Positions 25,506 through 50,161 are shown, numbered from the stretch's first letter. The stretch is DNA of 64,000 bases from Candidatus Kapaibacteriales bacterium (GCA_965661945.1 CBFIFP010000001.1:853592-917591), one strand, 5' to 3'. The notes: generated from the letters alone by a model not told the origin. Made by a program: numbers and translations.

Positions 25506-26419
25506 TTACCAATCCAACCACCAAGGTAGCCCACCGGCTGCTTCTCCAATAGCTGCTTTAACTGAGTTTATTCCTGCTCCTACCATAGCAGCACCAAGGG
25601 TAATAGCTGCTATTCCACCTGGTCCAGTAGCAACAACCGCTTCTGGATTTGTAGCAAAAAACATCAAAGCTCCACCAGCTCCACCTACTGCTCCACCGAT
25701 ATCTTTTCCCATAACATTTTTTGCAGCAGGACTTAAATCTAATAATTTTGTTTTTGAGGAATTAGATTTATTTTTATTAATACTTATTTTGATAGTTTCA
25801 TCTACATTACCCAATTCTACCCAATCATCTTAATTAGAAGTCCAATAATTTATTGTATATTTTGCTACCATTAATGTTGCACCTACTATATATTTTTCTA
25901 TCAAACTATCTAAACTATATGCTACTGGTATTTCAGAATCACAATATTGATTAAATTGTACTAAAGTCATATTTTCATCAACATATTCATTAAATACACT
26001 ATCCAAATCAGATAACATATTAAATGCTTCTTCTGTTATATCTGGATTTGAGTTCAAATAATCACTTAATGTAGCGTAAATATTAACTTCCATAGAGTCA
26101 ATATATGACAAATCGTAATTTTTATCTTCCGCAAAATTTATGACTTCATTATAAATAAAATCATTAATTGAATCTTGTGGATGAGGATCAATTTCATTTT
26201 TTATTCGAAGCAATTTGTTGTAAATGTGTCCATACATTCATTATGATGAGTACCTACATCATTTACAGCAGTTAAATAATCATTATATGTTATTGTAGCA
26301 GAATTAGTTATCCTAATCCCATCACCACTCCTAACTGGCGGTTCCTCATTACAAGAGAATAATATTGTTGATAATAAAATCATAGAATAAATGCTTAGTT
26401 TTAGTGTTATGTATTTCAT
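25506..26419 (-). pseudogene. Cassette-2 surface lipoprotein with a Gly-zipper/microcin-like C-terminus, disrupted by one -1 frameshift (~26215) and one in-frame TAA (25827-25829)
   Basis: Three ORF-track pieces (26201..26455, 25830..26237, 25506..25814) are collinear with the intact paralog 27108..27977. The N-terminus is MKYITLKLSIYSMILLSTILFSCNEEPPV. The VGTHHNE motif is present. The C-terminus is ...GGAVGGAGGALMFFATNPEAVVATGPGGIAAITLGAAMVGAGINSVKAAIGEAAGGLPWWLDW. Confidence 0.7.
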
Positions 26420-26469
26420 AATCACTCCTTTTATTAATTTAACAAAATTATTCAAATAAAATTTGAATT

Positions 26470-28190: not shown

Positions 28191-28192
28191 TA

Positions 28193-28600
28193 TTAATAAT
28201 CTTTTAAGATAAATTCAAATTCACTATATTTTATGATTTTAGTATATCCAATTTGATTTAAAACTAATAAGTCATAGTCCCCAGTAATTATAAAATCTGA
28301 ATTGCTATCAACTGCAAGATTTAAAATAAAATTGTCTTTTCTATCTCTACAAATTTTTATGTTTGATTCAATGTGAATTTGTAAACCATATTTTTTCAAT
28401 AAATCTATAATATTATTGACATCATCTTCTTCAAAATACTTTTTAAATTTTTTTCTTTTAGATACATCTTTAATTTCATCTAATAGTTCATCAGAATAAA
28501 CTAAAGTAATAATATTATTCTTCAATAAATTATAAATCACTTCGAATTTATTTGATATTAAAAAATAAATCCAAACATTAGTATCAAATATTATTTTCAT
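28193..28600 (-). CDS. PIN-domain toxin (TIGR00305-like putative TA toxin), 135 aa
   Basis: MKIIFDTNVWIYFL (first PIN acidic residue) and DFIITGDYDLL near the C-terminus. It overlaps the upstream antitoxin gene. Confidence 0.7.
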   Translation of the reverse strand: MKIIFDTNVWIYFLISNKFEVIYNLLKNNIITLVYSDELLDEIKDVSKRKKFKKYFEEDDVNNIIDLLKKYGLQIHIESNIKICRDRKDNFILNLAVDSNSDFIITGDYDLLVLNQIGYTKIIKYSEFEFILKDY

Positions 28601-28805
28601 TATATCTTTTCTGTCTTACAACATCAACTTCCTTGATTATTTCTTCCACAGAAATATCATTTTTTTTAGTCTTTAGCTTAGCTAAAGTTTGTAAAAATCT
28701 TTCATCAACGTCATCTGAAACAATTTTAATCAAATTAAGTGTTTCTAAATCATTTAATAGATTTTTAGCAAGCGGATTAGTTAATTCTATTGATAATCTT
28801 TCCAT
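28584..28805 (-). CDS. Antitoxin partner of the PIN toxin (73 aa)
   Basis: MERLSIELTNPLAKNLLNDLETLNLIKIVSDD... It overlaps the PIN gene by 17 bp. Paralog of 24342..24590. Confidence 0.55.
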   Translation of the reverse strand: MERLSIELTNPLAKNLLNDLETLNLIKIVSDDVDERFLQTLAKLKTKKNDISVEEIIKEVDVVRQKRYNENNI

Positions 28806-28927
28806 TTTTTTTTATTTAATTTATGTATCTTAAATAAAGACGAAGATTAGAATACTTTATTTTTTGAATTTAATTTATAAAATATTGAAAATAGATATTC
28901 GTTAATAGACAAAAACAAAGAGTATCT

Positions 28928-29131
28928 ATGCAAGAAAATTTAAAATCAAATATTATAAACAAAATAAATGAATTAAATGATACAGATGTATTATTTGAAA
29001 TAGATTCTTTATTGCAAAATCATAAAAAAATGACACTCGAAGAATATCAGTTAAAAATCAACAATGCTGAAAAAGATATTTTGGAAAATAACCTTTATTC
29101 TTCTGAAGAAATAGCAAATTTACTATTATGA
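28928..29131 (+). CDS. Type II antitoxin (ParD/RelB-like), duplicate of 24712..24915
   Basis: 67 aa, ~98% identical to the 24712 copy. It overlaps the downstream toxin start. Confidence 0.55.
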   Translation: MQENLKSNIINKINELNDTDVLFEIDSLLQNHKKMTLEEYQLKINNAEKDILENNLYSSEEIANLLL

Positions 29132-29424
29132 AATATATTGTAAGGTGGACTAATTCTGCGAAAATTGACCTTCAAGAAATTTTAGATTATTATTTAATAA
29201 ATGAAAATTATAGTATTGCTAAAAACCTATTAAATAAAATATTAAAATCCGTGACTTTATTAGAAAGGAATCCCAAACTAGGAAAATCTGAAACTTTGTT
29301 AGATGGTGATTACAGATTTATTCAATCAGGAATTTATAAAATAGTTTATAAAATAAATAATAAACGAATATATATAATAGCAATATTTGATAGCAGAAGG
29401 AACCCAGATGAATTAGTTATTTAG
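29128..29424 (+). CDS. RelE/ParE-family toxin, duplicate of 24912..25208
   Basis: 98 aa differing at ~4 residues from the 24912 copy. The flanking non-coding sequence is also duplicated. Confidence 0.75.
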   Translation: MKYIVRWTNSAKIDLQEILDYYLINENYSIAKNLLNKILKSVTLLERNPKLGKSETLLDGDYRFIQSGIYKIVYKINNKRIYIIAIFDSRRNPDELVI

Positions 29425-29444
29425 TGCATTTATCTTTTTATTTA

Positions 29445-29480
29445 GTAACATCAACAAGGGGTTTTGATGCCCCTTGTTGA
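29445..29480. terminator. Recurrent hairpin CAACAAGGGG-ttttgatg-CCCCTTGTTG (third copy)
   Basis: Identical to the element at 25228-25262. Confidence 0.6.
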
Positions 29481-29524
29481 TTTGGGAATAAAACAAGAAT
29501 TATTTATAATATTTTAATAAAATC

Positions 29525-29785
29525 TTACTTTTTTAAATTACTATCTAAGTTTTTATTTCTTTTATTAGCTATAAAATAAATAATATAGCCACCAAAAGAA
29601 CCTGCAATTATAGATCCTAAAATAGATGGTTTACTTTTAGTCAAATTAAAACCATACATTATAAAGTCAATTACTAAAAGCAAAATGATTGTAAAAATCA
29701 TTATATTTACAACTCTTTTAGTTAGAAATCTTCTAAATTTTAGAAAATTATTTACTAATTTATTTAAAGCCAATCTAACCACCAT
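29525..29785 (-). CDS. Small membrane protein (86 aa, 2 TM), a candidate immunity protein of cassette 4
   Basis: IMIFTIILLLVIDFIMYGF and ILGSIIAGSFGGYIIYFIA helices. It overlaps the lipoprotein 3' end. Confidence 0.5.
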   Translation of the reverse strand: MVVRLALNKLVNNFLKFRRFLTKRVVNIMIFTIILLLVIDFIMYGFNLTKSKPSILGSIIAGSFGGYIIYFIANKRNKNLDSNLKK

Positions 29786-30659
29786 GGAGCTCCTGCAGCG
29801 ATTTTTACTGCCTTTTTCAAAGATTTAGTTCCAGCATAGACCATTGACACACCAATTGCACCAGCAAAAGCACCACCTGGACCTGCAGATAATCCTCCAG
29901 CGATTAATACAGCAAAAGCTCCTTGTTTGGCACCCTCCAAATCCTGATTAATCACATCTTTGCCATCTTGACTTATTTCAAGTAATTTATTACTTTTTGA
30001 ATTAGATTTAGATTTTGAAACCAAATTAGTACTTTCTTCTATATCATTCATAAGGTTAAACCAGTCATCGTAATTTTGATTCCAATAGTTAGCAGTATGT
30101 TTAGCCACTGCAAAAGTTAACCCTATAGAAATTTTTTCTGAAAGACTATCTAAATTATATGCTAAATTTATATTTGAGTTACAATATGAATCAAATTGAG
30201 CAATTGTAATATTATTATTAGCTAATTCAGTAACCATACTGTCTAAATTTAATAACATTTGCTCAGATTGTTCTGTTAAGTTCGGACTTGTTTGTAAATA
30301 CCCTACTATATCTCTTGGATAAATTATTGAAGATGTATCTAAATAATCTAAAATATAACCTTTATTATCAGCAAAATTGTAAACTTCAATTCTTATAAAA
30401 TCATCTATAGATATGTGTGGTTGAGTATCAATTCCTTCTTTAATTCTATATAGTTTTTCATATAACGTGTCAAGAACTTCATTATGATGAAGACCTACCA
30501 TATTGACTGTATCAACATAGCCAGAATAAGTAATATTAGTAGTTAAATTTTGATAGAACTCTCCACCACTTCTAACTGGTTATTCCTCTTTACAAGAGAA
30601 TAATATTGTTGATAATAATATCATAGAAACAATGCTTAGTTTAAGTGTTATGTGCTTCA
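29764..30659 (-). pseudogene. Cassette-4 surface lipoprotein with a Gly-zipper C-terminus. It carries an in-frame TAA replacing the Pro codon directly after the lipobox Cys-Lys-Glu-Glu. The ORF track shows only the piece from the internal Met (29764..30501).
   Basis: ATGAAGCACATAACACTTAAACTAAGCATTGTTTCTATGATATTATTATCAACAATATTATTCTCTTGTAAAGAGGAATAACCAGTTAGAAGT... = MKHITLKLSIVSMILLSTILFSCKEE*PVRSGG, in frame with MVGLHHNEVLD... The C-terminus ends ...GGLSAGPGGAFAGAIGVSMVYAGTKSLKKAVKIAAGAPWWLDWL. Confidence 0.65.
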
Positions 30660-30711
30660 TAACAGCTCCTTTATATTAATTTAACAAAATTATTCAAATA
30701 AAATTTGAATT

Positions 30712-30770
30712 TCTGCTAAATTAAGCAATACTAAATTAAGCAATGCTAAATTAATATGCAAGAACTTTTT
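30712..30770. repeat. 15-bp tandem repeat array (~2.5 units) upstream of cassette 4
   Basis: ctgctaaattaagcaatactaaattaagcaatgctaaattaatatgcaag. Confidence 0.8.
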
Positions 30771-30782
30771 TTTCACAAAAGA

Positions 30783-30835
30783 AAAAGTTTTCCACAAATC
30801 ATTGGGGTTGTTGGGTTTGGGTGGTGAATTAAATT
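30783..30835 (-). promoter_or_regulatory. Conserved cassette box, degenerate occurrence 4
   Basis: gttttccacaaatcattggggttgttgggtttgggtggtgaatt. Confidence 0.4.
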
Positions 30836-31021
30836 TTTTTGATTTGTTAAAATTCAACATCTCCAATATTGTGGGTAGGTGGTAGGTTTATTTTTCTACA
30901 AATATTTTACATCTCCGATGTGGGTTAGAAAATTAAATATATTTGATTTAGATTATTATGATTGAATTTTACAATTATTTATAAATTTCATTGCTTCGGA
31001 GAAGCATAATATTTGTAGCAT

Positions 31022-31212
31022 AATTTACCCCCCTGCCCTACAACATCCATAGCAAACATAAGCAAAAGCATTGCTATTACTACATTTCTTGACATATTTC
31101 AACCCAATTTTATAAACAACACTTTAATAGGTCAATTAATGTGCCACTTGTTTTTTTAGATTTTACAAAATTGAGGAATATCTATTGAAAAGTAAATAGG
31201 AGGAAATACTGA
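31022..31212. repeat. Direct repeat B (~191 bp), a copy of the promoter/5'-end region of the 1976-aa giant gene. It encodes only a truncated signal peptide (MSRNVVIAMLLLMFAMDVVGQGG... then stop).
   Basis: ~93% identity to 22437-22627. The minus-strand translation gives the giant protein's first 20 residues, then diverges and terminates. Confidence 0.85.
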
Positions 31213-31224
31213 GAAAATTAAAAA

Positions 31225-31256
31225 AACAAGGGCAATGATGCCCTTGTTTTAATTAT
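31225..31256 (-). terminator. Hairpin terminator (ACAAGGGCA-atga-TGCCCTTGT) downstream of the 31273..31644 gene
   Basis: 9-bp perfect stem flanked by A/T runs on both sides. Confidence 0.55.
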
Positions 31257-31272
31257 TTTAATATGATTATCG

Positions 31273-31644
31273 TCAAAGTTTCTTTAAAATTGGTGTGATA
31301 ATATCAGACTTAAAATCATTATAACTTAAAATATCTCTCTTAAATCGAGGAAAGTATTCTAATCTAATTTGATCTTTAAATAAATCCAATTTTATAAAAT
31401 ACCCAAAATCATTAAATTTTATTTTACTTTCAAATATGGTTGTATTTTCTTTAGTTGCTAATTTTTTTAAATCAATACCTTTTAATACATCAACAATAAA
31501 TTTATATTTTGTTTTATCATTTGATATATGGTAAACATAATAGGCTCTCCTTTTTCCTGAAAATTTTCGTATTCTGAAATAAGAATATATTAAAAAATTT
31601 ACTATTAGAAATGATAAAGATAAGACAATTAAATTAAATTCCAT
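31273..31644 (-). CDS. Membrane-anchored small protein (123 aa; one N-terminal TM), a candidate immunity protein of cassette 5
   Basis: MEFNLIVLSLSFLIVNFLIYSYF TM helix followed by a charged soluble domain. It lies downstream of the cassette-5 lipoprotein pieces. Confidence 0.45.
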   Translation of the reverse strand: MEFNLIVLSLSFLIVNFLIYSYFRIRKFSGKRRAYYVYHISNDKTKYKFIVDVLKGIDLKKLATKENTTIFESKIKFNDFGYFIKLDLFKDQIRLEYFPRFKRDILSYNDFKSDIITPILKKL

Positions 31645-31662
31645 TTGTTTATTCCTTTGTAT

Positions 31663-32555
31663 TTATTCACAAGGTACAGGTTGTTTACATTGAACACAGT
31701 AGCAAGGCCAAACTGGATCTTCGTCACCTTCTGAGTTAGAAGTTGCAATCCCTAAAATCATTATACCAGAAGTAACAGCAGCACCAAATCCACCTAGTAC
31801 AGTACCTAAGGCATCTGCACCTAAAACTGCAATGGCTTCATTTGCTTGGTCAAGAGCTTCATAATTTGGAGCCATTAATAAACTTGCCGCTTTAGTCTCG
31901 AAACCATTTGGATACCAATATTCTTTCGATTTTCTATATACTGCTTCAAATTTCAGTGCGTTAGAATAGACACTTGTATTTAAGGTATCCCAAGGAAAAT
32001 TTTCAATTCTGTTATTAAAACTAATTAAATCTAAATTTTTATAATCATTTATCATAGGGGATAAAATAGAATAATTAATTGAGTCAATATAATTCATAAC
32101 AAATGCTTCTTCAAAAATATCATCTACATGATCAAATAAAAAATTTAGAACTAAAGTATCATTTAGTTTACTAAATAAACCTACCTCCATAAAAAAATCT
32201 TTGATATTTTCTCTTTGTGAATCTACTTGACTCTCAGAATAAATATTATTTACAATATAATAATCACCCATAATCTCTAAAAATTATCAAGATCACCTAC
32301 AGTTGCAAAAAAATCACCCTCAAAATTATATAACATTAAATGAGTACTATCATGAGGTAAATTGTTATTATGGTAATAAGCTAACAAATTATTGTGTTCA
32401 ACTCCAACACTATCATAAGGATTTGAAAAGGTTGTAGAAGTTGTATAATTAATATCATTCCCAATTTTAGCGAGTGGCTCCTCCTTACAAGACCAAAGAA
32501 ATGTAGATAATAAAATCATAGAAAAAATACTTAGTTTAAGTGCTATGTGTTTCAT
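31663..32555 (-). pseudogene. Cassette-5 lipoprotein family member split into two ORFs (32277..32555 N-terminal signal part; 31663..32271 C-terminal part) by a frame change. Its C-terminus diverges: a Gly/Ala zipper followed by a Cys-rich tail CYCVQCKQPVPCE.
   Basis: N-terminal part MKHIALKLSIFSMILLSTFLWSCKEEPLAKIG...VGVEHNNLLAYYHNN... with RBS AAGGAGttgttATG. The second ORF is in a different frame and ends ...AIAVLGADALGTVLGGFGAAVTSGIMILGIATSNSEGDEDPVWPCYCVQCKQPVPCE. It may alternatively be two genuine genes. Confidence 0.5.
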
Positions 32556-32609
32556 AACAACTCCTTAAATAAATTAAACAAAAATATTACTTTCGTAAAA
32601 AGTAATTTC

Positions 32610-32710
32610 TGCTAATTTAAGCAATGCTAATTTAAGCAATGCTAATTTAAGCAATGCTAATTTAAGCAATGCTAATTTAAGCAATGCTAATTTAAGCAAT
32701 GCTAATTTAA
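32610..32710. repeat. 15-bp tandem repeat array, ~6.5 units of GCTAATTTAAGCAAT
   Basis: ctgctaatttaagcaatgctaatttaagcaatgctaatttaagcaatgctaatttaagcaatgctaatttaagcaatgctaatttaatatcc. Confidence 0.9.
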
Positions 32711-32739
32711 TATCCAAATTATTTTTTTCGATACAAGGA

Positions 32740-32790
32740 TTAGTTTTCCACAATTTATTGATATATATAGATATATAATTAAATTTTTTT
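32740..32790 (-). promoter_or_regulatory. Conserved cassette box, occurrence 5 (TTTTCCACAATTTATTGATATATATAGATATATA)
   Basis: Same as 26575-26625 and related to the boxes at 23395, 28138 and 30783. Confidence 0.45.
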
Positions 32791-33150
32791 TTAATATTTT
32801 TTAATGATTTGAAGATTCGTTTTTTTAGGTGAGTTTGGCTATGTTTTTTCTACAACTATTTCACATCTCCGATGTGTATTAAATAAATATAAATATAAAT
32901 ATTTAAATTAATATTATTAATTAAATAATATTTATATAAAATATAATAAAATACATTTTTTAATATATTCTTAATAAATATAATTGTTTATTTAACATAG
33001 CATATAATAAAATAATTAATATTTAAAATAAAAAATAACTCAATCAGAAAATAAATTGAATAAAAATGCTAAATATTTTAACCTAAATAAATAAAATAAA
33101 TCCCCATAAAAATAATTTTTAAGGGGATTAAATTAAAATATTTTATTAAT

Positions 33151-34287
33151 TTATTTACCGAAGTTTATATCAATATCTTCAGGTTCTTCTATCCAATCAG
33201 CAACAAAAATATTTGTAACTCTGCTTGGTTGTCTATCAATATTTCTATTAGAAGCAAATACTATTTTTTTTCCATCGTAACTGAACATTGGAAATGCATC
33301 GAATAAACCAGAATTTGAAACTTTATACATATTTGTTCCATCAAGATTTATAGAGTAAATGTAAAATACTCTTCCTTTGGGGTCTTCGTGATTCGAACAA
33401 AATAATATTTTATCCCCACTTGGGTGAAAAAATGGAGCCCAATTAGCTTTTGGTAAATTTGTAATTTGTTTTGGATTTTTTCCATCAATATCAGCCACAA
33501 ATACCTGAAGTTCAAATGGTTCTACTAGATTTTGTGATAAAAGTTCTTTATAATTATCTGCATCTTCTCCTTTAGGTCTGCTTGCTCTCCAAACAATTTT
33601 TTTACTATCTCTAGAGAAAAAAGCACCACCATCATAACCAAGTTCATTTGTAATTTGTATAATTTCTTTGGTTTCAAATTCATATCTATACAAATCTAAG
33701 TCTCCATTTCTTGTAGAGGTAAAAAGCATATATTTACCATCAGGAGATACTGTAGGTTCTGCGTCGTATGAATCGCCAGATATTAGCACTTCTAAAGTTC
33801 CATCTTTATCTCTTTTGTAGATATTATAAGTAGGGTATATGCCCCATACATATCTACCTGTCAGAGAAATAACTTCTGGACATTCGTGTTTATCATCATG
33901 AGTAGATGCAAATATCATACTACCATCTTTTAAAAAATATCCACAAGTAGTTCTTCCATTTCCAGTTGAGACCAACTTGTATTTTTCGCCAGTTTCATAA
34001 GCGGAGCCATCGGTTTTCATAATAAATTGTTGGTCGCACCCCTGAGTATTTATTTCATCCCAATCGGATTGAAAAATTAGTTCTTTATCATCAAAACTCC
34101 AGTAAGCTTCAGCGTTATTTCCGCCAAAAGTAAGTTGTTTTACATTTCTAAAATGTATTTCACCCTCGAACCTAAGCGAATCCATCTCAGGTTTATAATC
34201 AAGTTCTGAGATTTCTAACTCATTTTCTTTTTTTCCGCCACAAGAAATTAGAAATCCAATAACTAATAAAAGCAAGATTTTTTTCAT
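33151..34287 (-). CDS. PD40/TolB-like beta-propeller lipoprotein (378 aa)
   Basis: Lipoprotein signal LLLLVIGFLISCGG. Repeated PD40-like units (S-DGK-I-F-S-R-G---DLY-). Confidence 0.6.
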   Translation of the reverse strand: MKKILLLLVIGFLISCGGKKENELEISELDYKPEMDSLRFEGEIHFRNVKQLTFGGNNAEAYWSFDDKELIFQSDWDEINTQGCDQQFIMKTDGSAYETGEKYKLVSTGNGRTTCGYFLKDGSMIFASTHDDKHECPEVISLTGRYVWGIYPTYNIYKRDKDGTLEVLISGDSYDAEPTVSPDGKYMLFTSTRNGDLDLYRYEFETKEIIQITNELGYDGGAFFSRDSKKIVWRASRPKGEDADNYKELLSQNLVEPFELQVFVADIDGKNPKQITNLPKANWAPFFHPSGDKILFCSNHEDPKGRVFYIYSINLDGTNMYKVSNSGLFDAFPMFSYDGKKIVFASNRNIDRQPSRVTNIFVADWIEEPEDIDINFGK

Positions 34288-34425
34288 TATTTTTGATATT
34301 AATAAAACATATAATTCAAAATTAAGGAATATAATTTAATTAAATATTCTTGTAAAGATTTTTTTAATAATTGTAATTTTTGTGTTGTCTATTTTTATTT
34401 GTTAAATCAGCACTATACCTTAAAT

Positions 34426-35946
34426 TCACTCTGCCCAACTTGGATTAACTCCCATATCAATATCTAAAATGTAATTGCCAATCAAAGCGAAAAGCAAAGG
34501 AACTAATATTGCTGCAATTATATTAATCCAAAGACCAGTATTTGCCATCTCTGCGATTTTGATTTTACCAGAGCCAAACACTATTGCATTTGGGGGAGTT
34601 GCAACTGGTAACATAAATGCAAGGGAAGCGCTAATTGTAGCAGGAATCATTAATATCATGGGATTTACATCTATCGCAACAGATATTGAAGCAAGTATTG
34701 GTAAAAATGTATATGTTGTCGCTGTATTTGAGGTAAATTCTGTTAAAAAAATAACAACAAAGCATATAAAAAAACTAATCAAAAGAGGGGGAACATTTTG
34801 CATTCCGGCAAATCCATTTCCAATTATTTCAGATAAACCAGTAGTTTGAAATCCCTTAGCCATTGCAAATCCACCACCAAATAAAAGTAGTATATCCCAG
34901 GGAATATTTATTATTGTATCTTTAGTCATTAATCTAAAATCTGTTCCTAAATTACTCAAAGTCGCTGGAATAATAAACAATAAAATAGATAATCCAATAG
35001 CAACAGTTGAATCATCTACAAGCGAAGGATCAGGTAGTATATTACTCCAGCCAGGAATAGTCATAAATCCCAAATCTACATTTACTCGGAAAATCCATAA
35101 AAGTGATGCAGAAACCATTGTGTAAAGAATAATTGTCTCTTGAATTGATATTTTACCTAGTTTTTTAATTTCTTTATTTATATATTGTTTATCAACGCTT
35201 ATTTCATCATCAATTTTAAATAAAAAGTTATTCAAAACAAACCACACCACTACCATCAAAACCACAGACATAGGTAGGGCAAATGACATCCATTTAACAA
35301 AAGAAATCTCTGGGGCAGCAGGAAAAGTCATCTCAAATATACTTTTAAATGCAATGTTAGGAACTGTTCCAACCAGCGTTGCAATTCCTCCAATAGATGA
35401 CGAATATGCAATACCAAGAAGCAATGCAACACTAAAATTATGAACCGCCTTATCTGAAAATTTACCTTCTAATCCTTTAATTACCGCAGTTCCAATAGGT
35501 AACATCATTATTGTTGTGGCGGTGTTAGTTATAAACATAGATAATAGCCAACTTGAAAGGAAAAACCCCCTTAAAATACCTTTTGCATCACCACCCAAAA
35601 AGCGTATGATATATAAGGATATACGTTTGTGCAACTCCCATCGTTCCATTGCTTGAGCGAGTAAAAAACCACCCAAAAATAGAAAAATGGTTGAGTTAAT
35701 ATATTGATTTGCAGTTTCATTAGCAGAGTGAATCTCTAAAAATGGAAATAAAATAAGCGGTAGCATAGAGGTAACAGAAAGAGGAACGGCTTCTGTCATC
35801 CACCAAATAGCCATAAGAATAGTAACTCCAGCCATTGCATTAGCAAGTGGGCTTTCTACAATTCCAAGATAATAAAAAATTAAAGCAAATAAAGGTCCAA
35901 TAATAAGCCCAATTGCTTCTATTTCTTTTTTTTCAAGTTTTATCAT
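34426..35946 (-). CDS. DASS/SLC13-family anion:Na+ symporter (ArsB/NhaD permease superfamily), 506 aa
   Basis: Around 12 or more TM helices. Duplicated hairpin-loop motifs (…SNTATT…) and ILLLFGGGFAMAKGFQTTGLSEIIG typical of divalent-anion sodium symporters. Confidence 0.65.
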   Translation of the reverse strand: MIKLEKKEIEAIGLIIGPLFALIFYYLGIVESPLANAMAGVTILMAIWWMTEAVPLSVTSMLPLILFPFLEIHSANETANQYINSTIFLFLGGFLLAQAMERWELHKRISLYIIRFLGGDAKGILRGFFLSSWLLSMFITNTATTIMMLPIGTAVIKGLEGKFSDKAVHNFSVALLLGIAYSSSIGGIATLVGTVPNIAFKSIFEMTFPAAPEISFVKWMSFALPMSVVLMVVVWFVLNNFLFKIDDEISVDKQYINKEIKKLGKISIQETIILYTMVSASLLWIFRVNVDLGFMTIPGWSNILPDPSLVDDSTVAIGLSILLFIIPATLSNLGTDFRLMTKDTIINIPWDILLLFGGGFAMAKGFQTTGLSEIIGNGFAGMQNVPPLLISFFICFVVIFLTEFTSNTATTYTFLPILASISVAIDVNPMILMIPATISASLAFMLPVATPPNAIVFGSGKIKIAEMANTGLWINIIAAILVPLLFALIGNYILDIDMGVNPSWAE

Positions 35947-36087
35947 ATTTAAATTATTTCAATATTTAATTTTAAAAGTAATATAAATTTGTAAAATTTA
36001 CATTGCAAAATTATGAAATATATTGGAAAGAAGGGAAAAAGTTGAGCTAAATAATATTTTTAAATATTAAAGAAAATATAAAAAAAT

Positions 36088-36112
36088 AGCCCATATTTCT
36101 ATGAGCTATTTT
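36088..36112 (-). terminator. Rho-independent terminator after the OmpA-family gene
   Basis: Minus strand ATAGCTCAT-agaaat-ATGGGCTAT followed by T7. Confidence 0.55.
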
Positions 36113-36134
36113 GTACAAATTTTGTAAATAGTTC

Positions 36135-37143
36135 TTACTTAGTTCTAACAAACTCAATTCTTCTATTTCTGGCTCTATTTTCAGCACTTGTATTTGGTAC
36201 TAAAGGATTATCAGGACCTAAACCCGAAGTAGTTATTTTATTAGATTGAATTCCTCTGCTTGTTAACCAATTTTTAACAGATACAGCTCTCTTTTTTGAT
36301 AAATCAATATTATATTGTCTATCTCCAGTATCATCTGTATAACCAACTATTTCAACTTCCCAATCTTAGTGGTTCTTTAAAGTTTTTAATGCTCTTAGTA
36401 ATATAATTTCTGAATCATCTGTTAAGTCACTAGAATTTGTTTTAAAAGTAACACCCTCTAAAACTAATTTATCACCAACGTTAGTATTATATTCTTCTAC
36501 ATTTGAGTATGCATCACTATTTAGATTGAAAATATCTCCAACATTATAAGATACAGTTATATAGCCAGTCCAAAAAGCATCGTTTATACCATCTAACCAA
36601 GGGTTAATATTATCATTGAATGCAAAATTTGGTCCTGCCGCAAAATCAACTGTCCAATATTTATTAATCAGATAACTAATCCCACCACCAAAATTATACA
36701 TCAAATCAGTACCCGTAATTTCATTTCCATCAAAATCAGGTTTTGTAATACCTGGCATAGGATCCAAAGCGGAATTATATTTACTTGAATAATTAACTAC
36801 TCCCAATCCTCCATAAACATAAGGTGAAATATTCCAACCCAAAAAGCTTAAAAAATAAAACCTAGCTCTTAAATCACCGAGTTACATATCAGATTCAAAA
36901 TATGATGGTATGTCTTGATCATGTTTCTCCTTTGCATAAGCCAAACCTAGCTCTAGGTGAACGTAATCTCCTAAAAGGTTAGTATACACAGCATTTGCCT
37001 TTAAACCATAACCCAAACTTCTTTCGTTATTTGCAGATTCGTTTATACCATAAACAGGTCATGCTCCAACACCAATGAACATAGCTCTGTCAGATGCGTT
37101 TAGCCACGGAGCTAAAAAGAATAATGCGATTAATATTTTTAAC
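36135..37143 (-). pseudogene. OmpA-family outer-membrane protein (N-terminal beta-barrel plus C-terminal OmpA peptidoglycan-binding domain) interrupted by three in-frame stop codons (TGA ~37060, TAA ~36886, TAA 36363-36365) with no frameshift
   Basis: A single reading frame reads MLKILIALFFLAPWLNASDRAMFIGVGA*PVYGINESANNERSLGYGLKANAVYTNLLGDYVHLELGLAYAKEKHDQDIPSYFESDM*LGDLRARFYFLSFLGWNISPYVYGG...LKTLKNH*DWEVEIVGYTDDTGDRQYNIDLSKKRAVSVKNWLTSRGIQSNKITTSGLGPDNPLVPNTSAENRARNRRIEFVRTK. The OmpA_C signature is VEIVGYTD...YN..LS..RA..V...L...G.....I...G.G...P...N......RNRR.E. Confidence 0.7.
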
Positions 37144-37267
37144 ATATCTATTTATTTAAAAATTAAATTTAACATTTGCATAATTATGAATAAATATTAA
37201 TATTATTGATAAGTATTTTTACCTATAAATTAAAAATAATTTTTTATAGTTTATATAATAGTGTAAT

Positions 37268-38860
37268 TCACCCTAAGATCTCATCTGGGCTTTGCGGTTT
37301 GACCATCACTACATTTTCTTTCTGCACTAAAACGCTACCTGAATTTGCTCCTTTAGGTTTGCGAACATATTTCTTCTCGGTATAAATTACAGGAACTAAT
37401 CCCGCCTTTCTCGATTGCGAGTAATATGCAGCAAGCGATGCAACTTTTTCTAATACTGCGTTGCTTAATTTTTCTTTTGAGTTAATTTTGATTAATGTGT
37501 GCGAGCCAGGGACACCTCTAGCGTGCAACCAAATATCATTAGGACGGGCGAACTTCATTGTTAATTCGTCATTATTGCTTGCGGATTTGCCTATAAAAAC
37601 TTGGTAGCCGTCTATTTCAAACTGTCTGAATTTACTTTCTTGTTCCATTTTTGGATTTATTTTTAACATTAAATCTTTTGCAAAATTAACTTTAAAATTC
37701 TTTATTTCCTTAATATTCTTAATTTTTTCAAATTCGGATTTTATAAAATTAAATCGCTCTAATCTTTCTAGAATATTTGGCAATTCAACTTTTTTTAATT
37801 CTGCATCTTTTTCTGTTTTCTTAGCTTTCTTGTAATATCTTTCTGCATTTTTAATTAAATTTAATTTTTTATCTAAATCAATTTTCAAATCATCGCCTGA
37901 CCAATCTTGGACTATTATTTCACTTCCAGAGTTAGACTTTGGATTGGGAGAGGACATAAGCAAATCACCATAATGCCGATATTCGCCTGAAAGTTCTAAA
38001 AGTTGTGAATAATTTGAAAATTGTTTATGTTTTGCATTTAATTTCTTTAATTCTTGATTTATTTTTCCTTCAATTCCTTTTTTTTCTTCATTAATTACAT
38101 CGGAATTAATTGATTTAATTTTTCCCCATTTAATGGCTTTAGAAATAGATTCTTCTTTTTGTACTACTTCTAATTCAGTCAGATGAGTAAGTTCAATTGG
38201 TGATATTAAATATTTATTATTTTCAAAATAAATATAATTTTTAGATTTTTTTAACATTAAAATAAAATCATTTACTAAATTAATTAAATCTTTTTCTGAT
38301 TTATTTGCTAATTGATTTTTATTTAAATTATTTCTAAATATTAATTCATTAGCAAGTTTATTTCCCATAATAAAAGGCAATTTAGCTAGATTATCAAAAA
38401 CTGAATTATCAGGAATTAGTTCAATATTTTTCTTTTTAATTTCCAATTTAGTACCAATTAGAAATTTGCTATCTTCTAAAGAATCAATAATTATTTTATC
38501 TTTTTTTGTGATAATTAAATTAGAAGATCCACGACCAAATAAAATTAAATATATATCAGAATTAATTAATTCAATTTTTATTATTCTATCGAAATTAAAT
38601 ATTTTAATATCTTGGACTATATCTCCAATGGCATCATCAAAAAGTGTAACTGTATTCTTACCTGCACGTTTGAAATCATCTCGCAGAAAACAAGAGGAAT
38701 ATTTATTATCCGAAGAAAAATCTAAAAACATTGGCGCATCTGAATCAAATTCTATAATAACAGAGTCTTTTTCTTGCGTGAAAACATCTGTTATTCTCTC
38801 ACCAATTAAGGTTTTTAATTCGTCATTTAGTTTTAGTAATGTGTAATAGTTTAAAAGCAT
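37268..38860 (-). CDS. NFACT-family protein (FbpA/RqcH-like ribosome quality-control factor), 530 aa
   Basis: N-terminal NFACT-N-like region, a coiled-coil middle and a C-terminal NFACT-R/DUF814 block DIWLHARGVPGSHTLIKI. Confidence 0.55.
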   Translation of the reverse strand: MLLNYYTLLKLNDELKTLIGERITDVFTQEKDSVIIEFDSDAPMFLDFSSDNKYSSCFLRDDFKRAGKNTVTLFDDAIGDIVQDIKIFNFDRIIKIELINSDIYLILFGRGSSNLIITKKDKIIIDSLEDSKFLIGTKLEIKKKNIELIPDNSVFDNLAKLPFIMGNKLANELIFRNNLNKNQLANKSEKDLINLVNDFILMLKKSKNYIYFENNKYLISPIELTHLTELEVVQKEESISKAIKWGKIKSINSDVINEEKKGIEGKINQELKKLNAKHKQFSNYSQLLELSGEYRHYGDLLMSSPNPKSNSGSEIIVQDWSGDDLKIDLDKKLNLIKNAERYYKKAKKTEKDAELKKVELPNILERLERFNFIKSEFEKIKNIKEIKNFKVNFAKDLMLKINPKMEQESKFRQFEIDGYQVFIGKSASNNDELTMKFARPNDIWLHARGVPGSHTLIKINSKEKLSNAVLEKVASLAAYYSQSRKAGLVPVIYTEKKYVRKPKGANSGSVLVQKENVVMVKPQSPDEILG

Positions 38861-38926
38861 TTTTTCAATTAAAAAAAGATATTTCGTAAATTGCAGTTTT
38901 AAAAATGTAAATTAGAAAATTATTAT

Positions 38927-39691
38927 ATGAATACGAAAAAAGATTTAGCAATTGTGATTTTAGCAGCGGGTCAAGGCAAAAGAATGAAAAACCCAGATAT
39001 TCCAAAAGTTCTTGCAGATTTAAACTCTAAGCCATTATTATCTTATGTATTAGATGTATCTTCGAAATTAAATCCTAATAGAATTATTTCGATTATTGGG
39101 CATAAAAAAGAATTAGTGGAAGAATTTTTAAAAAATAATTTTTCAAATGTTGAGGTTGCATATCAGCTCCAACAACTCGGAACCGGACATGCAGTAATGC
39201 AAGCAAATGAAAAATTAGCTGATTTTGAAGGTAATGTTTTGATTTTATGCGGAGATGTTCCACTACTTCGAGCAAAGACTATTGAGACGTTTGCAAATAA
39301 TCATCAAAATTATGGTGCTGACTTATCTGTTCTAAGTGCAGTTACAAAAAATCCAACAGGATATGGAAGAATAGTGCGTAATGAATCAGGGGAGTTTTAT
39401 AAAATTACAGAAGAAAAAGATGCAAATGATTTTGTGAAGAAAATAAAAGAGATAAATAGCGGTATATTTCTTGTAAATAGTAAGTTACTTTTTGATGCTC
39501 TTAGCAAAATCTCAAATTCAAACGCTCAAGGCGAATATTACTTAACTGATATAGTAGAAGTATTTGTAAAAGAAAATAAAAAATGTGCTGCATTTATAGG
39601 AGTAAGTTTTGATGAATTACAGGGAATTAACTCTCCTGAAGATTTGGAGCGTGCAGCTAAATATTTACAACCAATTTTCCCAGCAAGTTAA
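38927..39691 (+). CDS. Sugar-phosphate nucleotidyltransferase (GlmU N-terminal pyrophosphorylase-like domain only), 254 aa
   Basis: LAIVILAAGQGKRMK... G-loop, LCGDVPLL, and YYLTD... motifs of the GlmU uridyltransferase domain. No left-handed beta-helix acetyltransferase domain follows. Confidence 0.6.
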   Translation: MNTKKDLAIVILAAGQGKRMKNPDIPKVLADLNSKPLLSYVLDVSSKLNPNRIISIIGHKKELVEEFLKNNFSNVEVAYQLQQLGTGHAVMQANEKLADFEGNVLILCGDVPLLRAKTIETFANNHQNYGADLSVLSAVTKNPTGYGRIVRNESGEFYKITEEKDANDFVKKIKEINSGIFLVNSKLLFDALSKISNSNAQGEYYLTDIVEVFVKENKKCAAFIGVSFDELQGINSPEDLERAAKYLQPIFPAS

Positions 39692-40096
39692 ATGATAAAG
39701 TCAATTAATCACATAGGTATAGCAGTTAAGAACTTGGAAGAAAGTTTGAGTTTATATTTAAAAATATTCCAACCAACTGATATTCACAGAGAAAGCGTAG
39801 AAGAGCAAAAAGTAAATATTGCTTCATTTAAAGTTGGAGATGTTTTACTCGAATTAACCGAAGCAATGGACGAAACTTCGCCAATTCATAAATTCATAGA
39901 AAAAAAAGGCGAAGGAATTCACCATATTGCTTTTGAGAGTAGTAATGTGCAAGAAGATTTAGACCGATTAAAAAGCGAGGGGATAAACTTAATCAATGAA
40001 GAACCCAGATTAGGCGCCCACGATATGCTGATTGCCTTTATGCACCCAAAATCGACTGGTAGCGTATTGATGGAGTTATGTCAGGGGAAGGAATGA
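39692..40096 (+). CDS. mce: Methylmalonyl-CoA epimerase (VOC/glyoxalase-fold), 134 aa
   Basis: INHIGIAVKNLEESLSLY...GEGIHHIAFESSNVQEDLDRLKSEGINLINEEPRLGAH..ML.AFMHPKSTGSVL.EL. matches the methylmalonyl-CoA epimerase family layout. Confidence 0.65.
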   Translation: MIKSINHIGIAVKNLEESLSLYLKIFQPTDIHRESVEEQKVNIASFKVGDVLLELTEAMDETSPIHKFIEKKGEGIHHIAFESSNVQEDLDRLKSEGINLINEEPRLGAHDMLIAFMHPKSTGSVLMELCQGKE

Positions 40097-40835
40097 GGAA
40101 ACATTTTATACTTCACAGCAATAAATCCACCCAATTAAAAGTTCGATGTAAGTATAACACTTTCACAAAAGGAATTATGCAGGTGAAACTCTATAGAAAT
40201 TCTTAAATATCTTTAAAAAAAATAATACATAATTAAATAAAACGTTCCAACTTTTATGATAACATTAAGAAAAAAAAGAATTAGAAATACTTACAATCCC
40301 TCAATTAAAGCAATTTATTGGGATTAACCCTGTTTAAATTAAGAATTAAAGGTATAACTGTTCCGTATTAAAATGTTTTAATTGCTACATTAGCACTTAA
40401 AAAGAATTTAAAATTGTGAACATTTGATAAACATTTTACATTTATAAAAAAAGAATTAAAAGAATTAGATTTAATTAAATAAGCTCATAGGCACAAGAAG
40501 GCTTTGCAACGTGGTAACCAGAAAATATTTCTTACTCTCTTGCAATAAATTCATCTGCTGATACGTTTAGTGTAAAAATATTTTATTACAAATTTTTAAT
40601 GGATTATAATCTTCAATAATATTATAATTAATATTTAAAATCTAAACTATTATCATAAATTTTAGATTTTGTGTAGATTTTTACACATAAAAGCCGTGAA
40701 TTTCGTAATTTTGTAAAATTTATAATAAAAATTGCTAAATTTTATTAATTCTCATTATTTCTTTTGAGAAATAATTAATAATTTTAAAATATTTTAAAAA
40801 CAGTTTTAAACATAATATAAAATCCAAAGGAAAAA

Positions 40836-45973: not shown

Positions 45974-47844
45974 TTCAATTCATAGTTTAAGGTTAATAAA
46001 AAATTAATCCCTGGCATTGGGAAATTGTGAACTAAGTAATAATTTTTATTTAATAAGTTTTTTATTGAAAATATAAGTTTATAGTTATTTTCTAATAAAT
46101 TAATATTTTTATTAAAAATTATATCTATTAATAAAAATGGATCAATTACAGAATTTGCATCATTCCCTTGATTAAAATATCTAAAAGAATTATATGATAA
46201 TAATAAATTAGTGTTAATAATATTATTTTCATAATAAATATTAGAATTAATTATTTCATTAGGGATATACGGCAAATCGGTGTTTTTTAATATTGTATTT
46301 TCAACAAATATTGCTTTTTGATAAGTATAATTAAAATCAAATTTAATTTTATTATAATTAACATTTAACTTAGATTCTATTCCATAATTATTAACTTTTT
46401 CTAAATTCGAAGCACTCCATACTACAGGAGATAAAGGCATAGATAAAATATAATTATCAACTAAAGAATAATATGGATTAATACTAATTTCTATAAATTT
46501 AGTCATTTTAAATTTATTGTTGAAATTAATTGAATTTGATATTTCCGGTAATAAATCAGAATTGCCAAAATTCAAATAGTACATCTCGTTAAAACTAGGC
46601 GCTCTAAAATTTCTTGAGAGTGTGATTGCTGAGTTGTAATAATTCGAAACATAAGAAATAGAAAACATTGGCGAAAAATTATTGTTTGTATAATTTATCG
46701 CATCATATCTCATACAAATTAATAAATTTATTAATTTATTTTTTATTTTTATTTGTTTATTAATATTTCCCGCAACACCAAATAAATTTCCTAATATATT
46801 ATTTTCGTTAAGTAAATTATCTCCATTTAAATAAATTAAATCATTATCTATTCTAAAATTATAATTAATTGAGTTTGTTTTATATTTTAATTCACTAAAT
46901 AATTGAATGTTATTAGTGTAATAACTGTTATTTATACCATTAGAATTTATAATTTTATTTAAACTATCTTGATAATTTAATTCAGAATAATTATAAAATA
47001 TTCCATTATTTATTAGTATTTTATTGTTTTGATAATCTAAATTATAATAAATATAATGGTTATTATTAGTTAAATTTGCAGCATTATTTTCTAACTTATC
47101 TTGAATTACTGAACCAGGTACTCCTTGCTCTGTATAATTTAAAAAATATCTTATTTTTTGACTTATATTATTTTTGATAAATAATTTTGTAAAATTAATA
47201 TTAACATTATTTAATTGACTATTCTTTCTTTTTAATATTAAATCTTGATTGTTAATATTAACACTTATAGGATAATTAGCTTTATTATTTCTATAATCAA
47301 CTGATAATGATGTAGTTTTATTAATTGGATATGTAATACTTCCATTATAATTATTAAAAGAACCAAAATTAAATGTTATTGATTTTTTTTCTGGAATTGT
47401 TGAATTAAAAATAACATTTCCAAATAATGAATTACTACCATAAACACTCGAAGTTCCTATATTTTGTAATTCTATATTACTGATATTATTTGTATTAATT
47501 AAAGCGGTGTTAAAAACACCTGAACTTTTATCATTTATTTTAAAGCCATCATATATATATGCTATTTGGTTTGCTGTGGAGCCACGCAATGAAACCATTT
47601 TCATTCCGCCAGCACCTCCATAATCTCTAAGTGATATCCCACTTTTTTTACTTATTACATCTGATAAGTCAAGTGAATTTGTTTTGATTATTTCTGATTT
47701 ATTTATATAAGTTCTACTAAACATTATATTATTCACTTCTTGTTTACTATCAATTATTTCTAATGAATCAATTTGATAAAAAAGGGTGTCCTGCTGTTGA
47801 GACAACAGAACACCAATGAATATAAAAAAACTACTTAATAACAT
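45970..47844 (-). CDS. TonB-dependent receptor, BtuB-like in size (624 aa)
   Basis: Signal peptide. Plug-domain motifs (SLDLSDVISKKSGISLRDYGGAGGMKMVSLRGSTANQIAYIYDGFKIND). A long N/Y-rich beta-barrel. Terminal aromatic residues ...LNYELK. It is in an operon preceded by a cobalamin riboswitch. Confidence 0.65.
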   Translation of the reverse strand: MLLSSFFIFIGVLLSQQQDTLFYQIDSLEIIDSKQEVNNIMFSRTYINKSEIIKTNSLDLSDVISKKSGISLRDYGGAGGMKMVSLRGSTANQIAYIYDGFKINDKSSGVFNTALINTNNISNIELQNIGTSSVYGSNSLFGNVIFNSTIPEKKSITFNFGSFNNYNGSITYPINKTTSLSVDYRNNKANYPISVNINNQDLILKRKNSQLNNVNINFTKLFIKNNISQKIRYFLNYTEQGVPGSVIQDKLENNAANLTNNNHYIYYNLDYQNNKILINNGIFYNYSELNYQDSLNKIINSNGINNSYYTNNIQLFSELKYKTNSINYNFRIDNDLIYLNGDNLLNENNILGNLFGVAGNINKQIKIKNKLINLLICMRYDAINYTNNNFSPMFSISYVSNYYNSAITLSRNFRAPSFNEMYYLNFGNSDLLPEISNSINFNNKFKMTKFIEISINPYYSLVDNYILSMPLSPVVWSASNLEKVNNYGIESKLNVNYNKIKFDFNYTYQKAIFVENTILKNTDLPYIPNEIINSNIYYENNIINTNLLLSYNSFRYFNQGNDANSVIDPFLLIDIIFNKNINLLENNYKLIFSIKNLLNKNYYLVHNFPMPGINFLLTLNYELK

Positions 47845-50161
47845 TAAATTTAGCAGTTTTTATTTCTTTGTCAGTAGTTAGTTTTACAATGTAAGTTCCG
47901 TTTCCAAGGTTTAATCCCACAACATCAACTTTAGTAATTGCTCCATAAAAATCAGAATAATAAACTTTTTTTCCAGTAATATCATAAACTTCTATGTTAG
48001 TTTGAGCTGGCTCATTCTGACGAATATATACAAATTCAGTAGTTGGATTAGGATAAACTTGTAGCTGAATTTCCTCTTTAGAATTATTCTCTACACTTTT
48101 CATAAGTTGTCCAAGATATGCAACTTCTTTACTTGGTGAATAATCATCATTATTAATAACACAAGTCATTAAAAATTCTTCTTCCATATCTATAAACATA
48201 TCTTCTAATTTGCCCTTAACTTTAATTATCTCTAATAATCCATAATTATCAATTAATCTAATATCTCCTTGATATGTTGTAGTTAATACTTCAGCATCTC
48301 CGAAATATAAATTTCTTGGTCCATTCCATCCATTTGTTCCAGTCCAGAAAGTTAAAACTTCATCAGTATTAAAATCAATTACATTTAATTCATGTGAACC
48401 ATTCGACACAGTGTAAAGAACTTCATCGCTATAAATCATATCATTACCACCATCACCAATATTTAACTCTTTCAATTCTGGCATTTGCTGGTGAGGTAGA
48501 TTACCGTACATAATTGTAGAATTTCCTTGCCCAAAGAAACCTTCATTTAACATCGCAACACCTAATCCTCCAGTATGAGTAAAATATAATGTCTGAAGCA
48601 AATTATCTCCTGCAGGTATATTTTGTAGAATTGAAGAATTATCTCTATCAAAAACTTGAACTTGGTCTGCTTGATCAGAATTTCTAACTGAAAATAATAA
48701 GTGAGGACCTGCCAAGTCTATTGAAATAGCATTAACTTCCGCAACTGTTTCTTCAATTACCGAATGTTCATAAATATCATAAGATGCAATTCTATCTTTA
48801 TGAGGTATGTATAAAACACCTATTTCCTTATCATAAGCTAATCTTGTTGGAAATTTAATATCACCCATCCCAAATTCTAATACTTTTTCTGTTAAAGCAA
48901 TACTACCTGCTCCCTTTACAATCCACCATGATGGTAGTTCATCACCGTCATCAAATTCACCATTAAAATTAGCATCTACACCAAGACAGAATACATTATA
49001 CGTATCATTTTCTTCAGAGTAAACTATCTTAGATGGTTGACTTCCAACATTAACATATTTAAAAGTATAGTCATCATCAACTTTTCCTCTACCAACATAT
49101 ACTTTGTCATTTTCAAGCTCTTCTGTATCAAATAAGATAACATAATCTTGATTATTCCAAAAACTAAATTTATTAGAAAAATACTCAGAATATAAATCAG
49201 AAATAAAGTCAATAGCATCATTTTTATCTAAAGTTCTAATGTCATTATATTTAGTTAGAATAAATAAATTCTCACCTTTAGTAACCATTGATTGTGTTCC
49301 ATAAAAATCCCATTCCTCATTATATGCTAATCCGTTAGATAATTCTAAGATTGAACCATCAGGGCTTATTTTAGTAATTTCAGAACTACCAAAATATGAA
49401 ACATAAATCGCATTATTGAATTGAATGAACGACGAAACTTCTTCCTCTAAAGTCAAGGTTTCTAATTCAGGCATTTGTTGGTGAGGTAAAATACCATATT
49501 GTATTTGGTAATTAGGAACCATAAAAGATGGCTCAGATAAAAATCCAACTGCAAGTTCACCATCTTCGGTTTGATAATATATCACATCAATAGCATTAGG
49601 AAGCAAAGGTATTTCTTGCAATATCATTGACATATTAATATCAAATACAACTAATTTGCAATTTTCATAATCACCTGTATCATCATTCATCTCACCTTTG
49701 TCAATAATCAACAAATGAGGTCCTGCACTTCTAACTGCCTCAATGTTTCCTTCATATATAGCATCTTCTATTAAATTAGTTGTTTGTAAATCATAAGAAC
49801 TAATTTTATTTTTAAAAGGAATATATATTATTCTATTTTGAAAATCTATAGCTGGTTTAAAATCTTGGTTTATTGAGCTGAATTCAAATTGTTTCATATT
49901 ATTAGAAATAAATCTACCACCAGATCTGCCAATAGTCCACCAAGTAGGATATGAATCTCCTTGTTGAGATTGGTAAATACCATCATTATTAGCATCATAA
50001 CCAGCGCAAAAGACATTAGTATTGGTTCCCCAATGAAATGAATATACTGGTTGCATCCCAACAGACAATTCATCAAAATCGTTATAATCATAATATTGAG
50101 AATGCAAATTTGTTTGGCTTAAAATAGATAAAGCCAACAAAAGTAAAATTAATTTACTCAT
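47831..50161 (-). CDS. T9SS-CTD surface protein with two internal ~330-aa repeats (776 aa); the first gene downstream of the cobalamin riboswitch
   Basis: Signal peptide MSKLILLLLALSILSQTNLHSQ. Duplicated blocks (...DANNDGIYQSQQGDSYPTWWTIGRSGG... / ...DANFNGEFDDGDELPSWWIVKGAGS... and LPHQQMPELETLTL / LPHQQMPELKELNI). C-terminus ...GTYIVKLTTDKEIKTAKFNVIK (T9SS CTD). Confidence 0.6.
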   Translation of the reverse strand: MSKLILLLLALSILSQTNLHSQYYDYNDFDELSVGMQPVYSFHWGTNTNVFCAGYDANNDGIYQSQQGDSYPTWWTIGRSGGRFISNNMKQFEFSSINQDFKPAIDFQNRIIYIPFKNKISSYDLQTTNLIEDAIYEGNIEAVRSAGPHLLIIDKGEMNDDTGDYENCKLVVFDINMSMILQEIPLLPNAIDVIYYQTEDGELAVGFLSEPSFMVPNYQIQYGILPHQQMPELETLTLEEEVSSFIQFNNAIYVSYFGSSEITKISPDGSILELSNGLAYNEEWDFYGTQSMVTKGENLFILTKYNDIRTLDKNDAIDFISDLYSEYFSNKFSFWNNQDYVILFDTEELENDKVYVGRGKVDDDYTFKYVNVGSQPSKIVYSEENDTYNVFCLGVDANFNGEFDDGDELPSWWIVKGAGSIALTEKVLEFGMGDIKFPTRLAYDKEIGVLYIPHKDRIASYDIYEHSVIEETVAEVNAISIDLAGPHLLFSVRNSDQADQVQVFDRDNSSILQNIPAGDNLLQTLYFTHTGGLGVAMLNEGFFGQGNSTIMYGNLPHQQMPELKELNIGDGGNDMIYSDEVLYTVSNGSHELNVIDFNTDEVLTFWTGTNGWNGPRNLYFGDAEVLTTTYQGDIRLIDNYGLLEIIKVKGKLEDMFIDMEEEFLMTCVINNDDYSPSKEVAYLGQLMKSVENNSKEEIQLQVYPNPTTEFVYIRQNEPAQTNIEVYDITGKKVYYSDFYGAITKVDVVGLNLGNGTYIVKLTTDKEIKTAKFNVIK

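Follow-up and report, generated by a model that had tools for sequence, protein, structure and literature searches.

A single reading frame on the minus strand of the window, the whole 64,000-nucleotide stretch of DNA that was analyzed, runs from an ATG at 37145-37143 to a terminal TAA at 36137-36135. Translation of these 337 codons, in which there are no insertions or deletions, gives a conceptual protein that reads MLKILIALFFLAPWLNASDRAMFIGVGA*PVYG...YFESDM*LGDL...LKTLKNH*DWEVEIVGYTDD...NRRIEFVRTK*, each asterisk standing for a stop codon. Translation, Pfam matches and alignment confirmed the initial annotation of this locus as one minus-strand OmpA-like frame with three in-frame stops and no frameshift, and the stop coordinates given there were right to about 3 nt. 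The following features were assigned to the locus:

36135..37145, minus strand: OmpA-family pseudogene with a putative signal peptide, a putative N-terminal beta-barrel region and OmpA_C (translation, Pfam and gap-free alignment).
37104..37106, minus strand: codon 14, TGG (Trp), in the putative signal peptide; TTG (Leu) in 14 of the 14 other covering contigs.
37059..37061, minus strand: in-frame TGA at codon 29, after FIGVGA; ancestral GGA (Gly), changed by G>T; common to contigs L012-L016.
36882..36884, minus strand: in-frame TAA at codon 88, after YFESDM; ancestral TTA (Leu), changed by T>A; also in contigs L001 and L012-L018.
36642..37103, minus strand: putative beta-barrel region, residues 15-168 (PF13505, sub-threshold).
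36366..36368, minus strand: in-frame TAA at codon 260, after LKTLKNH; ancestral GAA (Glu), changed by G>T; in the window's genome only.
36162..36449, minus strand: OmpA_C-like peptidoglycan-binding domain, residues 233-328, with NIDLSKKRA (Pfam PF00691).
36083..36112, minus strand: terminator-like hairpin and T-run, 23 nt past the stop codon (sequence).

The conceptual protein matched PF00691 over the entire profile (75.6 bits against a cut-off of 27.2, E=4e-21; residues 233-328, profile positions 1-98 of 98), and the stop at codon 260 falls in the N-terminal part of this match, ahead of the conserved core. The match to PF13505 (OMP_b-brl) over residues 15-168 was below threshold (24.6 bits against a cut-off of 28.7, E=3e-5); this family is precomputed for four orthologues (P0001-P0003 and P0005) and is labelled 'weak' for P0070, the intact allele described below. 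The segment MLKILIALFFLAPLLNA/SD looks by eye like a Sec signal peptide and is treated as putative. Because a hairpin and T-run are present 3' of the gene, the signals of the transcription unit look undamaged. An Rfam match to sroB at 36080-36160 (minus strand; 37.1 bits against a gathering threshold of 44, E=0.005) covers the 3' end of ompA and this hairpin, and is most likely a chance match driven by the terminator.

Protein searches identified intact orthologues at 66-81% identity, all of them metagenomic: P0001, P0002 and P0005 (336 aa) and P0003 (353 aa). The frame aligned without gaps to these and to the intact 336-aa allele P0070. Scanning of species-representative genomes found 1 orthologous locus, and its orthologue, 73% identical, was used as an outgroup. 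At the sites of the three stops the orthologues have Gly (29), Leu, Ile or Phe (88) and Glu, Lys or Asp (260). The peptidoglycan-binding motif of OmpA_C is defined as N-x-x-L-S-x-x-R-A, which the conceptual protein contains as NIDLSKKRA, and the N, L, S, R and A of the motif were invariant across the full-length orthologues aligned. Sixty-seven solved OmpA-like domains matched at E<=1e-3, the closest C-domains being the PA0833 periplasmic domain (6jfw, E=2.7e-24) and YiaD (2k1s, E=1.9e-19), which aligned to residues ~221-333; comparison of the barrel region with solved barrels gave no detectable sequence match. The top NCBIfam domain match was YiaD_Gzip_OmpA. None of the NCBIfam equivalog cut-offs was reached by the conceptual protein: the porin OmpA model NF008071 scored 57.1 bits against a cut-off of 277, over the C-terminal domain only, and the Omp38 model scored 57 against 500. 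Judged by these scores, the proper name should be 'OmpA family protein' and not OmpA itself.

Strains of the same species were compared through fifteen syntenic metagenome contigs (L001 and L005-L018), all at least 98.8% identical across the gene. Wherever the flanks are covered, the order NFACT / ompA / Na-sulfate symporter / PD40 is the same as in the window, and contigs longer than ~7 kb are 99.4-99.6% identical to it. An intact 336-aa allele (P0070) was present in 5 samples, in the same gene context and with 99.0-99.1% DNA identity to the window gene; the window allele differs from it at 9 of 1011 bases. The gene alignment of 1011 bp contained 19 variable sites and 0 indels.

The stops were nested among these strains. 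No stop was found in the contigs from the 5 samples with the intact allele (L005-L009), in which codons 29, 88 and 260 are GGA, TTA and GAA. TAA88 occurred alone in three contigs (L001, L017 and L018), TAA88 occurred together with TGA29 in five aligned contigs (L012-L016), and TAA88, TGA29 and TAA260, together with L14W, occurred only in the window. L14W was identified in the codon table of the 15 contigs as a missense change specific to the window's lineage. TAA88 was found in every pseudogene-clade contig that covers codon 88, and the exact proteins of the two-stop form were recorded on at least 12 contigs. One further contig (L010) carried an independent GGA>TGA change at codon 112 on the intact haplotype, and another (L011) starts at codon 129 and is stop-free from there on. 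A single transversion separates each stop from its intact sense codon (G>T, T>A and G>T at codons 29, 88 and 260, and G>T at 112). The initial annotation had suggested that a recent loss was possible and had named truncation in relatives as what ordinary decay would look like. Both suggestions were borne out, as strains with one-stop and two-stop alleles exist and intact alleles with 99.1% DNA identity still circulate. The locus thus carries disabling mutations (stops at 29, 88 and 260) where a syntenic intact allele of 99% identity is found in other strains.

Clustering at 90% identity placed the 158-aa fragment from the window with P0070 (5 contigs), with C-terminal ORFs of 235 aa and 207 aa, and with a 321-aa allele; the N-terminal ORFs of 87 aa and 111 aa formed a separate cluster. 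The 321-aa allele (P0074) is from the same species, on a JGI contig of 1137 bp, and has an in-frame deletion of 15 residues (AKEKHDQDIPSYFES, codons 71-85) and an A-to-D change in an otherwise open frame. One gene call (P0079, on L013:31-294) shows 'W' at codon 29, and was considered as a TGA>TGG reversion; the DNA reads TGA, so the residue is an artefact of the gene caller, which apparently used code 4. Nonsense variants were also seen outside this set of alleles. A contig from a sister species (L021:148-1158, from ERZ27245830; 1.6 kb, 2.2x coverage) has an in-frame TCA>TAA change at codon 238 of the orthologue, which is ~72% identical to the window's at the protein level; the 336-aa frame is unbroken in the 7 other sequences of the same cluster. 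Two contigs (L010 and L016) have CAA>TAA at codon 248 of 254 of the nucleotidyl-transferase gene (equivalent to window position 39668), which shortens the product by 7 residues and is a further nonsense variant segregating in the same population.

Informative sites from window positions 33130-40270 were compared across nine strains. Their pattern is a mosaic in which the four-gamete test is violated many times, a sign that homologous recombination is frequent in this population and that its tracts are short. TGA29 in the window is flanked by markers of the strains with TAA88 alone, at 36519 and 36645 on one side and at 37177-37225 on the other, and so it would have been either brought in by a recombination tract of less than ~530 bp or gained anew through a parallel GGA>TGA change. 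Given TGA29 on such flanks and the four-gamete violations, a linear order of mutation is unproven, and a simple linear series is not fully supported for a population that is a recombination mosaic.

In other species, purifying selection on the orthologues of this gene is strong. Nei-Gojobori dN/dS between species was 0.07 against L019 and 0.16-0.18 against L002 and L004, with 0.016 between L002 and L004 and a range of 0.016-0.215 overall. The pattern within the species was different. Here variable sites were denser in ompA than in the other genes of the eight compared, at 18.8 per kb, with 14 nonsynonymous changes (4 of them nonsense) to 5 synonymous and 5 transitions to 14 transversions, against 10.4 variable sites per kb, 34:43 and 46:31 in the seven flanking genes (Fisher p=0.039 for the nonsynonymous-to-synonymous ratio and p=0.011 for transitions to transversions, on a small sample). 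The neutral ratio of sites calculated from the intact allele is ~3.7:1, close to the observed 14:5. Several of the derived changes on the pseudogene alleles (S43I, W192R, E288V and D312N) are at residues invariant in all orthologues compared, E265K replaces a conserved acidic residue, and S239C is also derived on stop-carrying alleles; across the outgroups these sites are invariant or conservatively replaced. A within-species pattern of this kind marks a gene whose constraint was relaxed once it had been inactivated.

The initial annotation had considered three stops without an indel to be unusual in a pseudogene. This premise fails for a pseudogene that differs from an intact allele at 9 of 1011 positions, since so few differences lead to an expectation of zero indels. 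Mismatches outnumbered gaps between strains in this 10-kb region by ~7:1 to 41:1 (pooled ~16:1), and all indels in the multiple alignment outside contig ends were intergenic; at such a ratio, and with indels confined to intergenic DNA, zero among the ~10 substitutions after inactivation is unremarkable. In the intact allele, 5.6% of all possible single substitutions are nonsense; among G>T and T>A changes, the classes seen here, the share is 13%. About 10 substitutions followed the first inactivation in the TAA88 clade and 2 of them were nonsense, for which P(>=2) is ~0.1-0.26 depending on the spectrum. For four nonsense changes among 19 variable sites, P is ~0.02 with a uniform mutation spectrum and 0.05-0.11 when the spectrum is weighted towards transversions, in a post-hoc calculation on a locus picked for its multiple stops. 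The three stops are thus only a modest excess over chance.

In-frame stops had also been described as over-represented in the window, with in-frame TAAs in the lipoproteins of repeated cassettes as a further instance. This held for a lipoprotein paralogue at 26455..25506, probably one of those meant, and not for the 28 long ORFs of the window, which contain none. The paralogue is an intact 304-aa gene in L014 (10415-11329); the window copy has a 1-bp deletion and a TAC>TAA change and is split into ORFs of 84, 135 and 102 aa. The paralogue belongs to a low-GC (24-27%) island at 22600-32900, mostly on the minus strand, in which paralogous lipoprotein cassettes share a conserved signal peptide/lipobox (...MILLSTxLxSC.EEPPV) and a Gly/Ala-rich C-terminus ending in PWWLDW. 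Tandem repeats of 15 bp (TGCTAAATTAAGCAA, 2.6-6.7 copies) lie upstream of the cassettes. Interspersed among the cassettes are small ORFs in two near-duplicate sets, which by eye resemble toxin-antitoxin pairs and are candidates for such. L014 joins window position ~32877 straight to ~26650, and ~6 kb of cassettes is strain-variable. The repeats and small ORFs of the island are:

23319-23360, 26472-26555, 28065-28106, 30716-30754 and 32610-32710: repeats upstream of cassettes.
23697-24104 and 28193-28600: near-duplicate 135-aa ORFs within the cassette island.
24712-25208 and 28928-29424: near-duplicate 67+98 aa ORFs within the cassette island.

Three other regions of the window were recorded. 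Between a glyoxalase-family gene and gltX, a spacer of 740 bp (40097-40835) has no ORF longer than 42 aa; of the 41 substitutions that distinguish the window from L001, 9 fall in it, together with a 1-bp indel, a density several-fold above that of the region, and an Rfam search of the spacer gave no match at E<=1. This may be what is left of a decayed gene, or a spacer without constraint. The minus strand has a cobalamin riboswitch (RF00174, 77 bits) at 50242-50435, directly upstream of a 776-aa ORF at 47831..50161. Three consecutive giant ORFs of 2140, 2544 and 1976 aa occupy 1828-22508 on the minus strand, and the last of these ends in what looks by eye like a type IX secretion sorting domain motif, a putative assignment.

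The stops, their ancestral codons, their nested distribution among strains, the standard code of the surrounding genes (described below) and purifying selection between species set against relaxed constraint within the species all point to the same explanation, namely that the locus is, very probably, a young and still-polymorphic pseudogene of an OmpA-family outer-membrane protein in which stops were gained stepwise as point mutations. The host would be an uncultured bacterium of the FCB group (Ignavibacteria/Bacteroidota-like), an approximate placement, the closest named relatives of the window's GltX being MAGs labelled Ignavibacteria or Bacteroidota at 66-67% identity. As TAA88 is common to all covering contigs of the pseudogene clade, it is likely the first inactivating hit, and the first knock-out was probably a single T>A transversion from TTA to TAA. 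The non-functional gene may then have gained further point mutations free of selection: GGA to TGA at codon 29 would have come next, in a subgroup of strains, and the lineage of the window itself would then have acquired TAA in place of GAA at codon 260, along with L14W. The locus would now give no product. The frame is still perfect because little time has elapsed (9 differences in 1011 bp), and stops are easily hit for two reasons: the sequence is AT-rich and has many GGA, GAA, TTA, AAA and TAT codons, and the mutations seen at this locus in the absence of selection are rich in transversions. Against this explanation, the nonsense fraction (4/19) is somewhat high, TGA29 sits between markers of strains with TAA88 alone, and TAA260 was seen in the window's genome only.

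Stepwise decay of a dispensable gene and positive selection for its loss make many of the same predictions. Loss would be favored if the surface protein served as a phage receptor or as a target of grazing or immunity, which we consider unlikely, although more credible than any other alternative; on this reading, knock-outs would arise repeatedly, rise in frequency and be kept as a polymorphism of function beside the intact allele. At least two independent first-hit knock-outs are present in one species (TAA88, and TGA112 on an intact-type haplotype), to which may be added the in-frame deletion of 15 aa in P0074, a TGA29 that possibly arose twice, and the TAA at codon 238 in the sister species (72% protein identity). 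Stop-carrying alleles also came from more samples than the intact allele. However, the same patterns are equally expected of a dispensable gene under relaxed selection, and the ratio of 14:5 fits the neutral ~3.7:1. Sample counts differ from allele frequencies, the sister-species contig has a coverage of only 2.2x, evidence for a phage or receptor is absent, and the second and third stops could not have been selected once the first was present. Were loss shown to be selected, this locus would become a candidate receptor at the cell surface, with phages or predators as the source of pressure on an uncultured lineage.

The recurrence of the stops in independent data argues against sequencing, base-calling or assembly artefacts in a gene that is truly intact, and such artefacts are very improbable. 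TAA88 was found in at least eight contigs and TGA29 in at least five, from different runs and assemblers, and the sources spanned SRR26630446, ERZ23491156, ERR4674194, DRR816227/238/241, SRR29965070 and ERZ23491063. Error had been raised in the initial annotation as one explanation of all three stops; it fails for TGA29 and TAA88, and a narrow opening is left at TAA260, which like L14W was seen in the window's genome alone. The 158-aa ORF between TAA88 and TAA260 was recorded only from NCBI and Logan, possibly from the same data. Damage or frequent errors in the window's genome were considered as the source of the G>T changes and rejected, because the window-specific singletons in 9.8 kb look ordinary: of the 12 window-specific substitutions in the multiple alignment of this region, 2 are in ompA and the others are mostly synonymous or intergenic.

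It is less probable still that the fragments retain function as parts of a split gene, one of which might be a C-terminal, peptidoglycan-binding piece translated on its own. Strains with TAA88 alone do keep a TTG-start ORF of 235 aa that includes part of the barrel and the whole of OmpA_C and has been called as a gene. Lacking a signal peptide, the product of this ORF would have no route to the periplasm; TAA260 cuts the ORF near the start of OmpA_C in the window, and the region has accumulated radical missense changes (W192R, E265K and D312N).

Least probable of all, with hardly any chance of being right, is that a full-length protein is made because the stops are decoded, by reassignment (code 4 or code 25), by selenocysteine at UGA or by programmed readthrough. 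At codon 29 and at codon 112 it is a Gly codon that TGA has replaced, and UGA encodes Gly in genetic code 25; in addition, the automatic call P0079 translated TGA as Trp. The 'W' in that call is an artefact of the gene caller over TGA DNA, and TAA is outside the reach of all these mechanisms. The window has ~30% GC, and 28 long ORFs amounting to 50,010 nt (78%) can be read with code 11 without meeting an internal TGA, TAA or TAG. All three stop codons are used as terminators (TAA in 17 of the 28, TGA in 7 and TAG in 4), including in genes with full-length Pfam matches: the neighbors of ompA, an NFACT-family protein and a Na/sulfate symporter, both end in TGA. Genome-wide recoding by code 4, code 25 or TAA reassignment was ruled out by this ORF structure and terminator usage. 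No tRNA genes were found within the window. The initial annotation had proposed looking for a SECIS-like structure 3' of the TGA. The 75 nt starting just before TGA29 fold no better than shuffled sequences (z=-0.36) and Rfam gave no SECIS match at gathering or at E<=1, so that no SECIS hairpin was detected 3' of TGA29. Relatives have Gly (GGA/GGT) at this position, and selenocysteine was ruled out by the fold, Rfam and the orthologues. With ancestral codons of GGA, TTA and GAA, and with all three stop codons terminating ORFs nearby, the possibility of readthrough, selenocysteine or other recoding raised in that annotation was not sustained.

These data are mainly a negative result, in that the stops speak neither for faulty sequence nor for readthrough, selenocysteine or an alternative genetic code, and the ompA locus should be annotated as a pseudogene. 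Because stages with 0, 1, 2 and 3 stops were all recovered from independent metagenomes, the locus is also a clean natural time-series of early gene decay, and it indicates that a dead gene in an AT-rich genome can gain several nonsense codons ahead of its first indel.

Comparison with known systems places both the protein and its decay. Like E. coli OmpA, A. baumannii Omp38/OmpA and P. aeruginosa OprF, the conceptual protein has a signal peptide (putative here), a putative barrel region of ~200 residues (weak PF13505) and PF00691, with a C-terminal domain that can be aligned to the solved C-domains of OmpA, Omp38 and OprF and an NxxLSxxRA-type motif, here NIDLSKKRA. Unlike them, it is an equivalog of no named member, and the gene is inactivated here. 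The likeness to the PA0833 domain and YiaD is confined to the C-terminal domain, with scores under the equivalog cut-offs, and YiaD is a lipoprotein without the N-terminal region present in the window's protein. The feature is real and its explanation is ordinary. Young, polymorphic nonsense pseudogenes have been described in recently host-restricted pathogens, among them Salmonella Typhi, Yersinia pestis and Shigella. As in those organisms, the gene was knocked out by point mutation in a frame that is otherwise whole, intact alleles are present in close relatives, constraint was relaxed after the first hit, and the disabling mutations differ among strains. Unlike those pathogens, the lineage studied here is uncultured, environmental and seen in metagenomes only, and it has three stops in one allele, with all of the intermediates recovered.
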